Assembly (NCBI GenBank): GCA_963777155.1
Contig: CAVZPM010000033.1
Location: forward strand, 1-64,000
DNA from: Candidatus Bathyarchaeota archaeon
GTDB lineage: Archaea; Thermoproteota; Bathyarchaeia; Bathyarchaeales; Bathycorpusculaceae
DNA length: 64,000 bases
Direction of reading: 5' to 3'
The translations under genes and the position numbers were made by a program. The notes below the pieces were generated by a model that saw only the letters and a program-made list of their open reading frames with translations, ran no database searches and had not been told where the DNA came from. Positions 7,401-17,894 of the stretch are shown piece by piece (position 1 is the first letter of the stretch; each line of letters opens with the position of its first letter).

Positions 7401-8753
7401 TCTGGAAGACTGGCGATGACTGTGGATACGCTTGGGGGTTCGCCCCTTAGGCGGGTGCAGTTTACACGGGCACTGATCATGGAAATAACGTCGAGCATGT
7501 AATCCCATTCAATGAATAAGTAGACGCGGATCATGCCGTCGGGACTGTACATTAATGCGGTGTCTGCGCCAGCTATGGGACTGTCTTCTGGAAGGCTGCC
7601 GTATCCAGTGCCGGTTAGCCATGGCATCCATCGGCTTTTGCTTGCATAGAGACTGCCAGGTCGAATGCCCCCTAACATGTACTGGGCGCGTTCGATAAGC
7701 CAATCAAGCTTAGGCCCCACAACTGGGTCAGCGGATATCTTCAGCAACCTTCTTTGTATCTTTGGCAGGAATAGTTTTGAATTCGTACGGACGCAAATCC
7801 GTTGCATCCATTACAGCCTTTAGTTTAGCCAAATCCTCCAGACGCTTTATGTCATGGTTAGCCAGTGCATGCTGCTCGCCTCTACTAAGATTAAGCAGGG
7901 CAATACTTTCGTTTTCGACTGCGCACACTATGCAACATTCGTTGAAGCCACAGTTGTCACATCGCCAGCAGAGCTGAAACTCTACTTTTTCGAGCAGCGT
8001 GTTGTGGATGCGGTTTAACTCACCGTTTTTTGATAGTAGCCGCTCAACGTCTTGTATTAGGGGGCTTAACTTGAATTTTGGCAAGCTATCGGCGTCAAGC
8101 TTCTCAAGGTTTGTTTCGCGGTTAATGACGCCTCCTTCAAGGTCAACCTTTGCAGATAAACCGCCTAGTTCCCGATTAAGCAACAAAACGTAAATTGCCA
8201 CTTGAATACGGTGTGCCGTCTGCTCTTTCCAAGAGGACTTTAACTCAAAAATCCTAACTTTCACCTTGCCATCTTTAAGCGGCCAAACAGCAATCAAATC
8301 AGCAATACCCTTAACATCCCAAACGCCGATTGGACCCTTCATGGGAACCTGATAAATCAAGATAGGTCTATTGTCAGTTTTCTCTCCTGCTGCAATCTGG
8401 TGCTCAATAACATAACAGAGATTATCTACTGAATCCTTGGCTTTATCCCAGCCCTTCTTTCCATAAAGTTTGGGGTCGTATATGGAGAAATCAAGGTATT
8501 CAGCGGCTTTCTCTTTTAGTTCATCGACTTTTTTCTCTTCTAACGCTTTTCCTGTACCGTAAAGCAGGGGACTGATGGCTTTGAAAGCTTCAGGCCATTT
8601 GCGTTTTTTTACTTCTTTGCCTTCGAACTTTAGTTTGAAGAATCGGGGGCAGCAGTTGAAGCGGATGTATTCAGCTATTCCTGAAGCAGTAAGTGTTGGA
8701 GCGGCTTCGCTTGGGTCTTCTTCTTCGCCTGAGTAGTTTAAGCTGAGAGTCAT
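4404..8753 (-). CDS. Large PD-(D/E)XK (RecB/Cas4-like) nuclease fused to an SF1B (Dna2/Nam7-type) helicase, ~1450 aa, split by 3 frameshifts
   Basis: Four overlapping ORFs (7728-8753, 6395-7807, 4921-6465, 4404-5045) give GIADL..FELKSS..Q.AIY, then GPPGTGKT, DEASM, GDHRQL, TVERFQGGE and RINVAISR in order. Confidence 0.85.
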
Positions 8754-9569: not shown

Positions 9570-9805
9570 ACACAAATAAGATTGCAGAACAAAAAACAAA
9601 GTTTGAAAACTAAACCAATCAGCTTCTCATCTTTTCACCTTTTTTAGAACTAATCGATAGGGGTTTTTAATGCGGGGAATAAAAATTATTGATGTTTATT
9701 TTTTTTAAAAATTTTAGCTAAAAGTATTGGATAATCGAAAGTTTTATCTGAAAAAGTTAGTGAATACAAACTGTGATTAAATTGAAAGAAAGTACAGTGA
9801 GCGTT

Positions 9806-10603
9806 ATGGATTTTCCTCCGCCGCCCCCTCCTCCACCGCCACCGACTTCAAGACGTTTTTCTAAGACAATGCTTGCCGCAATATTAGTTATCGTTTTAGT
9901 AGTTCTGGTATCTGCAGGCGGTTACTATGTTATGACTCTACCCCATGACAACAACCCCGGTCCTGAGCCCTCCGCGACTGCATCGCCTTCAACTACACCT
10001 CAAACATCGCCTTCATCAGCCCCAACGTCTCAGGTCACAGCTACTCCCACCCTGTCAGAGCAAACATCTGCGGGTTATCGAGATGGAGCCTGGGCAAACT
10101 ATACCACCGAGAACTATGATGCAAACGGAGCTGTAGTCGCAAACTACAACCTTGGTTACGCCGTTGGCCAGGGAACTATCAAAGGAATTGACTGTTGGAT
10201 ATTCCGAACTGAACTGCAACTCGCCACAGAAGGCAGTGTAATGAAGACTGTTACAACTTATTGGCTGGACAAAAGTAATCTCCAAGGAGTTCATTACAAA
10301 ATAGTGATAACCTCAAATGACATAGTAATATCTGACACTGAAAACGATTATGCACCCGGCGATTTCAACGACATTCCCACAGCGATCAAACCAAGCACGA
10401 TTGTAACTAAAGAGTCAGTTACGGTTCCTGCCGGCACATTCAACTGCGACAAAGCTGTCATAACACAGACAGATCTTGGGAAAACCTATGTCACTACAAT
10501 ATGGGGTAACTCGAACATACCAGTCATCGGCATGGCAAAGCAAACTATGACCCAAGATGGCATCTTGATATCATCCACAGAGCTCATAGCATACGGCGGC
10601 TAA
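9806..10603 (+). CDS. Single-pass membrane protein: poly-Pro N-tail, TM helix, Pro/Ser/Thr linker, extracellular domain with VTVPAGTF motif
   Basis: ORF translation. Confidence 0.75.
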   Translation: MDFPPPPPPPPPPTSRRFSKTMLAAILVIVLVVLVSAGGYYVMTLPHDNNPGPEPSATASPSTTPQTSPSSAPTSQVTATPTLSEQTSAGYRDGAWANYTTENYDANGAVVANYNLGYAVGQGTIKGIDCWIFRTELQLATEGSVMKTVTTYWLDKSNLQGVHYKIVITSNDIVISDTENDYAPGDFNDIPTAIKPSTIVTKESVTVPAGTFNCDKAVITQTDLGKTYVTTIWGNSNIPVIGMAKQTMTQDGILISSTELIAYGG

Positions 10604-13845: not shown

Positions 13846-14409
13846 TTACTTGCCGTAGAAAGCTGGAACAGAAAACTCTGTTGCAAATTTGAAACTCTCA
13901 TTTCCTTTTGTATTACTTCTAGATTTCAGAACTATTTTCTTTGGAGCATCATCTTCAATATATATAAGATAAGTTACAGTTGTGCCAAGACCTAATCGAG
14001 ATAGCTGCTGGATTGCGATTCTAAACTCCTCGAATTCTTGAATTTTGGTCTTGATTTTCTCAATTGCATCAAAGATTATTTGAGTCTGAGCTTCGTTAGC
14101 GAAGGATATTTGAAGCTTCCCAGAGTAGACCCAGCATGATTCAGCCTCACCCTTTCCATTTTTTCCTTTTTGTTTCTTCTCGTTAGATGATTTTACTGGA
14201 GGCTGCTTGGTTTGGATTTTAAGAGTTTTTTGAATCGCCAACGTCTTTTTGTACCATTCTTCATCCTTATTTTCCTTTTCAAAATCTCTTAGAAGGGTTC
14301 CAAGCCATTGACTGTAATCTTCGAATAATGCCTTGTTCTGAGAAATTTGATTTGACGTATAGTCCACTATATCTTTAATTGAAGTGAATTGACGTATCTC
14401 GGTTCCCAT
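13846..14409 (-). CDS. Hypothetical protein
   Basis: AGGAG SD before MGTEIRQF; 187 aa. Confidence 0.7.
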   Translation of the reverse strand: MGTEIRQFTSIKDIVDYTSNQISQNKALFEDYSQWLGTLLRDFEKENKDEEWYKKTLAIQKTLKIQTKQPPVKSSNEKKQKGKNGKGEAESCWVYSGKLQISFANEAQTQIIFDAIEKIKTKIQEFEEFRIAIQQLSRLGLGTTVTYLIYIEDDAPKKIVLKSRSNTKGNESFKFATEFSVPAFYGK

Positions 14410-14483
14410 GACAAAGCTCCTTTTCAAGACAATTACGATTTGACTATATTTCAGGAACATGGGATAATAATATTTGTCCATCC

Positions 14484-14700
14484 AAAAAATTACAGACTCT
14501 CTGAAAAGTCTATTATGCGGGTTTTCATAGAAGAAACTCGTGTGGCTTAGAGGCAATGCAAAGCCGAACTGAACCCCCTCATCTTTCTTCTATAGAGACT
14601 AATCTCTCCGATGTCTAAACAGTTGGCTTTGTGATTTGCACTCCAAATTGGCTACCACACGAGCTCATCTCATTGGTTTTGAATAGCTGTTGCTATTTCA
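14484..14700 (-). ncRNA. Candidate structured ncRNA or leader RNA with terminator
   Basis: Nested complementary blocks: CTCGTGTGG 14537-45 with CCACACGAG 14655-63, and CAAAGCC-AACTG 14559-71 with CAGTT-GGCTTTG 14620-31. Hairpin followed by a U-run at 14484-14512. Confidence 0.6.
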
Positions 14701-14771
14701 TGCTAAAGGTGCTCGACATCACATAAAAGTATTGTGTATTAATATTCACTACTACAGATAGTCAAAACGCT

Positions 14772-16391
14772 TTACTTCGTCCTTAACTTAAAGAAATAAA
14801 CCAATCCCCCAGATACTGAGAGGGCAACCAACATCCCGATTATCGGAATGAAGTATTTTATGTACAGAGGCGGCTCTGTAACTGAAAAAAATAGTTCTGG
14901 ACCAGTAACTCCAAAGGAGAAAGGCGTCTCTGGTGAGGATGCAGTAATGGAATAATTGCCTGAATTAGGAGGTTGGAAGCTTGCTTGGAAGGTTCCCTCG
15001 GGCGTCAATATGCAATTTAGAGTTCGATTGAAGTTTACACCATAAATTTGTAATTCCACTTTTGAGGTATTTGTTATTGGGTTCAGAATGCTACTTACGG
15101 TAATATTTTCCCCCAATTGTATCGTTTCTTTGATCAAAGAGGAATTTAAAGTTGATAACATCTTGACAGCGTAATTTCCGGATGCATTTAAGACATTGCA
15201 CAAAGAATCTACCGCTTCTATCCTATATTGTATAATTGAGCCTGCCTCTTGAGCAGGAATTATGACACTACAGGTGTGGTTGAAAATGGACATACTCTTG
15301 TTGGTCTGGGTAGACCAATTGTCCAAAGTGTAGTAACATGTTGCATGTTCGAGACTATTTGAAATGGATGAGTAGGAGATCTCGGTTGCATTGCCAGCAA
15401 GTACTGTTTTTGGAGCAATTACTGGCAAGAGAGATTCGTTGGCGAAATTGGTTTTTAGCATAAATTGGATTTCTCCGGATCCTTCTTCGCCTATAAGCAC
15501 CAAGTGATAGAGGTTAGTGAATTTGTTAGTCGAAGAGTAGTTGAGAAACATTGCTTTGCCAGCGTATTCACAGCTTGCATATGCGACACCTCTTGAACCT
15601 TCACTTTCAAAATTGTAGCCACCGATCTTACTGCTAATGTTAGCATATAATCCAGGTTCCCAAGGAATAGGATAAGAGTTTATACTAAGAGATTTGGCAT
15701 CATTCATCAAGTAAAGTCTAGCTTCATACATATCCAAGGTGTGGGGTACTTTTACGTAGAGTTCCACGTAGCTGGCATTTGACATTAATTCATAGGCCCA
15801 AGAGGTACGGAAACTTGGTAATCCGTTGCTTTGTTTACCGTCTATCAAAGCTGTATTCCACACATCGGTTCTAAGGTTTTCTATTATCATGAAGGTAGCT
15901 TGTTGGCTTCCTTCGCTCTCCCGTAAATCATTTTTTATAACAAATGAATAGTTGCCTGATTGTTTTGGCGCAAAAAAAGGGTCATCAGTTGTTGTTCCCA
16001 AATGTTCCGGAAAACCTGCTGCTTCGGTGTGATAACTTTCCAAGTTTCCTTGTGGATTAAAAACGTATATGTCGTAATCTGTCTTGGCCGCAGAAGATGT
16101 GTTAACCCATGTTCCATAACAATAGACATGATAGTCGTGGTTAGCTTCAAGCGGTACTACAATAGTCCAGTTCTGACCAATTTGAATCTGACTGTTGTTT
16201 ATCATAACTGGAAAAAAGGGTTTGTCTACATACGTAATGTTCCCTTGGCCTGAATTAACGTAGGTATGGACATTAGTCGTATAGTCGTAGGTTGCAGTTA
16301 ATTGTAGACCTAAACAGCTTGGAAGCAAAAACATGGTCGTGACTATTATTACCAATAAAATTTTAGCATGAATTCGAAGTTTTATGCGCAT
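14772..16391 (-). CDS. Secreted/surface protein with C-terminal TM anchor and Ig-like region
   Basis: Signal peptide, many N-x-S/T sites, C-terminal TM followed by a basic tail. Confidence 0.75.
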   Translation of the reverse strand: MRIKLRIHAKILLVIIVTTMFLLPSCLGLQLTATYDYTTNVHTYVNSGQGNITYVDKPFFPVMINNSQIQIGQNWTIVVPLEANHDYHVYCYGTWVNTSSAAKTDYDIYVFNPQGNLESYHTEAAGFPEHLGTTTDDPFFAPKQSGNYSFVIKNDLRESEGSQQATFMIIENLRTDVWNTALIDGKQSNGLPSFRTSWAYELMSNASYVELYVKVPHTLDMYEARLYLMNDAKSLSINSYPIPWEPGLYANISSKIGGYNFESEGSRGVAYASCEYAGKAMFLNYSSTNKFTNLYHLVLIGEEGSGEIQFMLKTNFANESLLPVIAPKTVLAGNATEISYSSISNSLEHATCYYTLDNWSTQTNKSMSIFNHTCSVIIPAQEAGSIIQYRIEAVDSLCNVLNASGNYAVKMLSTLNSSLIKETIQLGENITVSSILNPITNTSKVELQIYGVNFNRTLNCILTPEGTFQASFQPPNSGNYSITASSPETPFSFGVTGPELFFSVTEPPLYIKYFIPIIGMLVALSVSGGLVYFFKLRTK

Positions 16392-16676
16392 TGCTAACCA
16401 GCTTGGAAACTTGTTTTTTAAGAGTATAAAGTTGAAGATAATAGTTATGAATGCAAGATTCTGATTCTTGCTCCAGTTGCTAACAAACACAACTGTGTCA
16501 GTCTAATTTGACAATAATAGTTCCTTAAGAATATCGAGCTTAGATTCACGGTACATATTAGCAGCAAAGATAGTGATTCTTTGAGTCAGCACCGCTAACC
16601 ATCAGTATTGAATCGTAATACGTAATATATATAAGAGTGGTTGTGTGTAATTTTTCCAACAGGTGAAAAATAATAA

Positions 16677-17369: not shown

Positions 17370-17894
17370 ATGAAAAATATACTAAGAAATCGTTTGGCTC
17401 TAAGCACCGTCGTAACAACTCTGATCATCCTTGTCGTTTCAGTGCTACTCGCAGGCGTCGTAACATACTTTGCAATCAACGTAACCAGCACCCGTGTTCA
17501 AGAAGAAAGCTCTCAGTCTTTCTCATGGAACACATTTGGGTTGACAATGCAGGCGCAGCTGTCTGGCGCAATTATGATCACCAACACTGGCGGACGCGAT
17601 GTTGTCATAAACAAAATTACCGTACGTGGACAAGAATGTACTGCACTATCCGTTGACGCACGCAGCAGTACCCAGGCGTAGATTTAGTATATCGCTGATG
17701 CAGCCCCGTAGCAGTTGCTGACACAGCTCCAATAGTTCTTGCCTCAGGAAACACAATCGGCATATATGATCGATGCACCTGACAGCATAGGCACCAACGA
17801 CATTGGCTTAACAGTTGCTTTCACCGTCTTCACATCACAAGCGATGTACTACAAAGAGACAAACGTCCAAGCAACAGCCATAATCATAGGTTAA
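17370..17894 (+). CDS. Archaeal type IV pilin (class III signal peptide), paralog 2; several frameshifts
   Basis: MKNILRNRLA/LSTVVTTLIILVVSVLLAGVVTYFAINVTSTRVQEES; GGRDVVINKITVRGQ; PDSIGTNDIGLTV; MYYKETNVQA. Confidence 0.8.

Follow-up and report, generated by a model that had tools for sequence, protein, structure and literature searches.

A conserved, non-coding rod-like element homologous to an internal stretch of cheD in a genus of Bathyarchaeia

The 64,000-nt stretch of DNA analysed here (contig CAVZPM010000033.1 of assembly GCA_963777155.1; hereafter the window) carries a rod-like element in a 362-nt spacer between a 572-aa ORF (14772-16490) and a 187-aa ORF (13846-14409), all on the minus strand. 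It is well supported that this element is a conserved, non-coding rod derived from cheD, the gene for chemoreceptor glutamine deamidase (PF03975), of the same genus. On balance, we consider it somewhat probable that the element is a structured RNA that was exapted from coding sequence and has been maintained as a functional RNA. The initial annotation of the window, made from its letters alone, had proposed a new structured RNA at this position, and this reading holds in so far as the element is conserved, strand-specific, structured and covarying, belongs to no Rfam family and is not a repeat. What the annotation had missed is the homology of the element to internal cheD coding sequence of relatives that have the che genes. 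The features referred to below are the following, all on the minus strand:

13846-14409, minus: gene of a Bathyarchaeia-specific 187-aa protein without Pfam or NCBIfam family; the downstream gene
14461-14500, minus: conserved block AGAGTCTGTAATTTTTTGG-ATGGACAAATATTATTATCCC (40 nt), upstream of the 187-aa gene
14484-14512, minus: 3' hairpin plus T6 (T6 at 14484-14489); possible archaeal termination signal, overlapping the promoter block of the downstream gene
14522-14678, minus: rod core, the stretch matched by covariance model R2; homologous to cheD codons ~40-102, non-coding here
14534-14545, minus: 3' arm of the basal stem P1, CCACACGAGTTT, in the MFE fold; homology to cheD stops ~10 nt beyond it
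14572-14580, minus: G-run motif GAGGGGGTT on the 3' side of the apical loop; corresponds to cheD codons Cys-Gly-Gly-Leu
14594-14607, minus: apical hairpin AGAGA-TTAG-TCTCT, at the position of helix P5
14655-14666, minus: 5' arm of the basal stem P1, GAGCTCGTGTGG, in the MFE fold
14682-14697, minus: 5' hairpin AATAGC-AACA-GCTATT, in the fold; possibly an RNA hairpin close to the 5' end, or else a palindromic operator in the DNA
14723-14744, minus: promoter-like, BRE/TATA-like motif (TATTAATACACAATACTTTTAT) of the kind that precedes cheY in che-positive relatives
14772-16490, minus: 572-aa ORF with a C-terminal membrane anchor and without family; the upstream gene, ending 27 nt before the promoter motif

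Fold and distribution of the rod element

The minus strand of positions 14484-14700 (217 nt) folded with an MFE of -66.3 kcal/mol, compared to -48.1 +/- 4.6 kcal/mol for shuffled sequences (z -3.95), and none of 200 shuffles folded equally well. The folding signal is therefore above that of shuffles, as the structured-RNA proposal predicts. The plus strand of the same region yielded a z-score of -2.58, with 3 of 200 shuffles equally good; since this fold is weaker, the minus strand is favoured for the rod, in agreement with the strand preferred at the outset. The predicted architecture consists of a 5' hairpin, a long rod with a closing stem of 12-13 bp, nested helices and an apical hairpin, and a 3' hairpin followed by T6. 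The internal helices of the MFE fold are TTGGAG/CTCTAA, GCAA/TTGC, CAAAGCC/GGCTTTG, AACTG/CAGTT and CATC/GATG, so that every helix named in the initial annotation was recovered, including the apical and the 5' hairpins. The rod core alone still reached a z-score of -3.5. The pairing in the rod family takes the form of nested helices that span ~130-190 nt. Individual helices differ in how they vary. P1 shows a compensatory change of G-C to A-T with respect to the genomes G022 and G011, and its arms vary between copies while complementarity is retained. The sequence of helix P5 differs in the other clade and in cheD, and four short copies lack the helix. The 5' hairpin has an invariant stem and a variable loop among the three closest genomes.

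In blastn searches of the genus, two long matches to the element were obtained, with 78% and 72% identity. Downstream of a recurring AT-rich word, we found divergent RNAs of the same architecture and, in one genome, a CheY-like ORF instead. The gene of the 187-aa protein lay downstream in all seven of the first homologous loci, and single-sequence folds of 25 upstream regions gave the same rod in nearly all cases. Two covariance models, R1 and R2, were built from the homologues. As MAFFT mis-registered the basal stem when the two clades were aligned, and RNAalifold recovered only 20 pairs on the MAFFT alignment, the fold of one sequence was projected onto the alignment and the sequences were realigned with Infernal. 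The window's own element scored 39.7 bits with R2 (E = 1e-6 among the loci and 6.9e-6 genome-wide) and was the sole match in its genome. Matches of R2 were far stronger on the forward than on the reverse strand, e.g. 179.8 versus 37.4 bits.

Upstream of the gene of the 187-aa protein, R2 detected the element at 26 of 80 loci in addition to the window. In the genus as a whole, 66 of 120 genomes were R2-positive (43 of the 73 high-quality ones) and 54 were negative. Only 12 of the best 30 R2 loci were accompanied by the gene of the 187-aa protein, and of the other 18, 17 were located inside an ORF whose translation reads as CheD. Copies were also present at unrelated loci, where they are followed by T-runs.

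The element matches no RNA family in Rfam. A comparison of the whole 64-kb window with the 4227 models of Rfam 15, including those for SRP RNA, RNase P RNA, 6S RNA, riboswitches and T-box elements, gave no match at the gathering thresholds. At E <= 10, the 501 nt from 14350 to 14850 gave two rows at chance level, with 18.6 and 13.5 bits as compared to cut-offs of 43 and 50. This bears out the view that the element lacks the signatures of the SRP and RNase P RNAs, both of which were dismissed by eye and by the Rfam null result. The same applies to a tRNA-like reading of the GGGGGTTAGCTCA stretch as acceptor and D-arm, and a guide RNA of the H/ACA type was rejected by eye, there being no ACA box after the stem. 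The element resembles 6S RNA, SRP RNA and other rods in Rfam in its overall rod shape, its length of ~150-200 nt and its internal loops. Unlike them, it shares no common motif with these families, and its origin from coding sequence is unlike that of any of them.

Homology to cheD and constraint within the coding sequence

In a che-positive relative (L112), Pfam assigned the gene order cheY, cheD (PF03975, E = 2.4e-29), cheC and cheR. The rod is located inside an intact cheD in 29 genomes, approximately at codons 40-102. A CheD domain was detected in 29 of the 120 genomes of the genus, and all 29 were also R2-positive; among the matches listed, the R2 match lies just upstream of the CheD domain match and overlaps it. 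With 29 of the 66 R2-positive genomes carrying CheD, 37 R2-positive genomes remain that lack the domain, and that of the window is one of them. A joint alignment of the element with cheD revealed homology over the entire rod, including the stretch encoding GSC and CGGLAH. The two have in common the promoter motif of the che operon type and the same nested helices. In contrast to cheD, the copy in the window is interrupted by three stops when read in the cheD frame, is without the part matched by Pfam and encodes no CheD; its pairing and its G-run are conserved relative to cheD, whereas its codons are not.

Loss of the reading frame is general among the non-coding copies. Read in the cheD frame, 25 of 28 copies contain at least one stop, two contain none and one was not scored. 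The copies inspected had stops and frameshifts, and no ORF is common to the 28 copies. PF03975 gave no match in the window's genome, and tblastn with CheD, CheC and CheR queries from the same genus found nothing in it. Since this genome is 90.6% complete, the absence of the che genes is probable rather than proven. In a FastTree phylogeny of 188 model-aligned columns with midpoint root, most of the copies linked to the 187-aa protein formed one group apart from cheD, whereas L137, L138 and L140 were placed near cheD, and L085 and L071 within it. This rough tree hints at more than one origin of the non-coding copies.

The rod is constrained beyond the encoded protein already in the live gene. 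Among 13 intact cheD genes, the codon identity in columns with invariant amino acid was 0.77 for the rod (29 columns) versus 0.41 for the rest of the gene (34 columns; Mann-Whitney p = 1.2e-7), and 12 of the 29 rod columns but only one of the 34 others used a single codon. The constraint is patchy, with values of 0.90 for the 5' arm of P1, 0.97 for the G-run plus the 3' arm of P4, and 0.80 for the 3' arm of P1, which argues against a recombination sweep. The two arms of P1 in cheD, which encode Glu-Glu-Val and Glu-Pro-Leu-Pro, are reverse complementary to one another. The mean z-score was -7.2 for rods embedded in cheD (n = 16) and -5.7 for non-coding copies (n = 28). Outside the genus, cheD from nine further genera or families within the class folded no better than shuffles (z +1.5 to -2.3), and the sole R2-positive genome had a cheD with a z-score of -6.55. 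In 19 cheD rods, 86.4% of the cells were paired compared to 83.6% after shuffling (0 of 500 shuffles as high) and 34-40% with slid partners; only 10 pairs changed on both sides, a count reached by 51 of 500 shuffles. Since the rod is under synonymous constraint while cheD is still alive, it is no accident of the protein sequence.

Two genomes carry a second copy of cheD, L139 (G117:C6) and G073:C43. In the former, the G-run is lost (GGC GGA in place of GGG GGG) and the R2 score is only 50 bits; the latter has no R2 match. Thus, the protein does not need the nucleotides of the rod, as judged from these two paralogues.

An RNA function that overlaps an archaeal reading frame on the same strand would not be without parallel. 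Archaeal intraRNAs within coding sequences, defined by internal transcription starts in Halobacterium (PMC6161675), share this arrangement. The rod differs from them in that its basis is comparative, i.e. synonymous constraint and fold, and in that it also occurs as a separate non-coding gene.

The G-run of the rod is conserved. A run of at least four G is present at this site in all 28 non-coding copies. In cheD, the codons TGT GGG GGG and GCT CAC are invariant in 13 of 13 genes, and the intervening TTA is TTG in one of them. The sequence AGGGGGT is complementary to the 3' end of 16S rRNA (GGATCACCTCCT) over seven positions, including one G-U pair; as the 16S rRNA gene is not assembled in the window's genome, this 3' end was read from two other genomes of the genus. 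We regard the complementarity as a lead for a mechanism and not as evidence of one.

Possible maintenance of the non-coding copies

The covariation proposed as a check of the structure was assessed on the homologues. In 18 non-coding copies, 80.7% of the cells were paired compared to 68.9% after shuffling (0 of 500) and 36-43% with slid partners, and double changes occurred in 40 of 56 pairs compared to 26.7 in shuffles (0 of 500); these pair counts lie above shuffles, but the figures are overstated because the alignment was fitted to the model and the sequences are kin. G-U pairs are common in the rods, non-coding and cheD-embedded alike.

As a measure of neutral divergence, we used the fourfold degenerate sites of the neighbouring gene. 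In this model-fitted alignment of related sequences, the element was more alike than the fourfold sites in 307 of 325 pairs, and averaged an identity of 0.55 in the 202 pairs where fourfold identity was below 0.45. For two pairs within the window's clade, the identity of the element was below the fourfold figure. Between the two main clades, the fourfold identity was 0.23-0.35, i.e. saturated. Neither a neutral rate nor an absence of pair preference, as expected of a neutral pseudogene, was seen in the model-fitted alignment of these related sequences.

Non-coding copies were also found next to an intact cheD in four genomes, G014, G109, G117 and G073. The copy in G073 is located upstream of the gene of the 187-aa protein and those in the three others at other loci. 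The P1 arms of all four are rewritten and still complementary, with z-scores from -2.3 to -8.9. T-runs follow P1 within at most 45 nt in the copies of G014, G109 and G117; loci with T-runs after the rod include those of the window's clade, L137 and L140. A likeness to the che-type promoter was seen by eye in two of the copies from che-positive genomes; the motif scan matched L141 only. In copies at four kinds of locus, the likeness to cheD stops ~10 nt after P1.

The most serious alternative is a plain remnant of the gene: the che operon would have decayed by deletions, leaving a piece of cheD and the old promoter as junk that is not yet eroded, with a hairpin shape merely inherited from complementarity already present in the cheD sequence. 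The homology to cheD and the loss of its frame are as this explanation predicts, and several loci look like stages of such a decay. L071 has an intact cheY, a frameshifted cheD that ends at about residue 120, and then the gene of the 187-aa protein; L113 and L114 have premature stops in cheD, and cheD of L117 is truncated. In G081, cheD lies 9 kb upstream of the gene of the 187-aa protein on the same strand. The element is missing from 54 of the 120 genomes, and in L029 and L030 it is nearly erased, with only the 3' flank left. Mere decay does not account, however, for the persistence of the fold, the G-run and the promoter motif between clades whose neutral sites are saturated, nor for helices that were rewritten with their complementarity intact. 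It also leaves unexplained why copies at four kinds of locus have the same end point, why G073 and other genomes have a copy in addition to an intact che operon, and why synonymous sites are constrained already in live cheD. We therefore consider a plain remnant rather unlikely. Template-switch mutation in inverted repeats can mimic compensation without selection.

Decay of cheD was also observed in G139 and G064; in these and in L113, L114, L117 and L071, the gene is prematurely terminated, frameshifted, truncated or interrupted by stops within the Pfam match. The genus appears to be losing chemotaxis repeatedly, with the CheD domain kept in 29 of 120 genomes.

Under the reading of an exapted, functional RNA, the rod was apparently kept for its shape after the loss of cheD. 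The rod would itself be the selected unit, an RNA domain that first worked within, or was excised from, the che mRNA. After loss or duplication of the che operon, it would persist on its own, as a transcript of ~200-240 nt whose 5' end lies near 14700 and whose 3' end does not extend beyond T6 (14484-14489). Its mode of action would most likely be that of a binding platform, in which the long stem gives stability and the single-stranded apical G-run (AGGGGGT, Shine-Dalgarno-like) contacts a partner, which may be a protein, the 30S subunit or a C/U-rich RNA. A role in mimicry or as a decoy, as well as the identity of the partner, are guesses. Evidence against a maintained function is that the element is dispensable, given that 54 of 120 genomes of the genus have no match, and that two cheD paralogues do without it.

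A more specific form of this reading, which we put forward tentatively as somewhat less than an even bet, is that of an RNA gene nested in the cheD frame of one lineage of Bathyarchaeia, which was freed more than once together with a promoter of the che type and has its own job. The rod would then have evolved on top of the codons and outlived chemotaxis, and it may present its G-run to the 30S subunit or to a regulatory protein.

Decoy RNAs that stem from pseudogenes or paralogues are represented by mammalian PTENP1 and by enterobacterial GlmY, which mimics GlmZ. Like these, the element would be a non-coding descendant of a functional RNA or mRNA that it still resembles, and it could compete for the binding partner of that RNA. 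Unlike PTENP1 and GlmY, it persists in genomes without any cheD mRNA to compete with.

Literature searches yielded no description of RNA structure in cheD or of non-coding RNAs in Bathyarchaeia. To our knowledge, almost all known structured RNA families are without visible ancestors, and the origin of new ones is largely obscure. This genus offers the coding form of the fold side by side with intermediates in decay and with non-coding copies that stand alone. Should the non-coding copies be functional, they constitute a traceable case of a coding sequence turning into an RNA gene, and cheD of these uncultured, globally abundant archaea of sediments and soils holds a second layer of information in its codons. 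If the RNA is indeed nested in the cheD frame, this would be a rare documented birth of a structured non-coding RNA family from an archaeal protein-coding sequence. The covariance model represents a new RNA family for the annotation of Bathyarchaeia genomes, and it marks a stretch of cheD whose codon usage should not be taken as neutral.

Promoter, flanking genes and further alternatives

The AT-rich, TATA-like boxes initially noted upstream of the rod proved to be a conserved promoter-like motif at 14723-14744. Matches to this word of 22-26 nt with 92-96% identity were obtained by blastn in at least five further genomes of the genus, among the matches listed. The 22-nt word presumably comprises BRE and TATA elements. 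The motif was followed by a homologous RNA in seven loci and by a CheY-like ORF in L011, and 5 of 19 che loci have it ~70 nt ahead of cheY when up to four mismatches are allowed. Since the word also precedes cheY, the non-coding unit resembles a che promoter joined to the rod.

Directly downstream of the che-type promoter word, just after its TATA-like part, L124, L119, L120, L137 and L138 contain perfect palindromes of the form TTATCGTAA-N3-TTACGATAA or TTATCTTAA-N3-TTAAGATAA. From their sequence and position, these look like operator sites of a che regulator. The hairpin AATAGC-AACA-GCTATT of the window occupies a comparable place.

Metatranscriptome contigs from three runs in two studies covered positions 14593-14689 and 14653-14811 with at least 95% identity. 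These are short assembled contigs without ends or strand; the uncovered parts carry no weight. One of the contigs extends over the promoter into the last part of the upstream gene, and may reflect read-through or DNA.

The initial annotation had also considered that the element could be a 5' leader, similar to an attenuator or riboswitch, which would act on the downstream genes (14409-12429) through termination at the U-run. The arrangement is suggestive: the element lies on the same strand and directly upstream of the gene of the 187-aa protein in the window, at 26 of 80 loci and at all of the seven first homologues, with a hairpin plus T6 ahead of the gene, and the distance given for the run was correct, as it ends 75 nt before the ATG at 14409. 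T-runs terminate archaeal transcription. In the window's clade the T-run is conserved, whereas the other, larger clade has merely TTTCT there, so that read-through into the gene would be possible. The T-run and the 3' arm of the 'terminator' hairpin, however, are part of the conserved block at 14461-14500 (AAAAGTATGTAATTTCTGC-ATAGACAAATCCTATTATCC), which precedes the gene of the 187-aa protein also where the RNA is missing. Among the loci without RNA, 37 have a core of the ATAGACAAA type, and 22 of these 37 a GTAATTT-like word just upstream. By its conservation, this block is most likely the gene's own promoter region. Since it is kept at loci without the RNA, the T-run is not simply the RNA's own terminator; of the terminator initially assigned, hairpin and T6 exist as described. 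It also follows that the gene has upstream signals of its own and does not need the element, which is missing at 54 of 80 loci of this gene. Copies inside cheD and at unrelated loci, and the lack of a match to any Rfam riboswitch, likewise speak against a leader, which we regard as quite improbable. Neither alternative terminator/antiterminator pairing nor a ligand pocket is evident in the MFE or centroid fold.

The likelihood is similarly low that selection acts on the DNA, with the inverted repeats and the G-run serving as protein-binding sites (an operator or looping site of a che regulator) or forming a cruciform. The blocks GGAAGAGG and CCTCTTCC vary little in most copies, obvious palindromes occur in the nearby che promoters, and the plus strand also folds above chance (z -2.58), as would be expected for a DNA element. 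It is hard to reconcile with such a role that many pairs are G-U and therefore valid on one strand only, that the model scores are strongly strand-asymmetric, and that nested helices are paired over ~130-190 nt. Moreover, whole helices were rewritten with complementarity, which binding sites would not tolerate.

The probability of a mobile repeat (MITE) or of a gene for a small protein is close to nil, despite the inverted-repeat, rod-like shape of the element and a 50-codon open frame in the copy at L026. The element is single-copy in its own genome (2.29 Mb in 39 contigs) by blastn and by model R2 and is thus no MITE, which the initial annotation had named as a finding that would refute its reading; its position is syntenic with the gene of the 187-aa protein in 26 loci plus the window, and no ORF is common to the copies, with cheD-frame stops in 25 of 28; for the window's genome, we consider both refuted.

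For the downstream 187-aa protein, 89 relatives were found and 80 loci were kept; the titles of the records are almost all Bathyarchaeota or Bathyarchaeia. The protein had no match in Pfam or NCBIfam, and in the Atlas it matched clusters of hypothetical proteins only. Its AF2 model (pLDDT 75.8) combines long helices, beta-hairpins and a disordered linker rich in Lys; it had no match in the PDB at E <= 0.001. Four loci that encode the protein, L091, L043, L044 and L058, come from bins titled as bacterial or Nanoarchaeia. The protein of L091 is 97% identical to that of the window, and the locus carries the same RNA. These four are probably mis-binned contigs.

The 572-aa ORF is the upstream neighbour in the window's clade. 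The placement of the element inside a pilus locus, as initially described, was loose: genes for an archaeal pilin, T2SSE and T2SSF do occur at 17.3-22.5 kb of the window, and the closest of the pilin-like genes, on the opposite strand, has its start at 17370, beyond the 572-aa ORF. Elsewhere in the window, a 341-aa ORF at 7728-8753 (minus strand) ends in a Cys-rich stretch (CWRCDNCGFNECC...C), which may point to an Fe-S nuclease of the Cas4/AddB kind. The ORF at 9773-10603 (plus strand) starts with ten prolines, followed by a membrane helix and a stalk rich in Ser, Thr and Pro, and by this composition looks like a surface protein.
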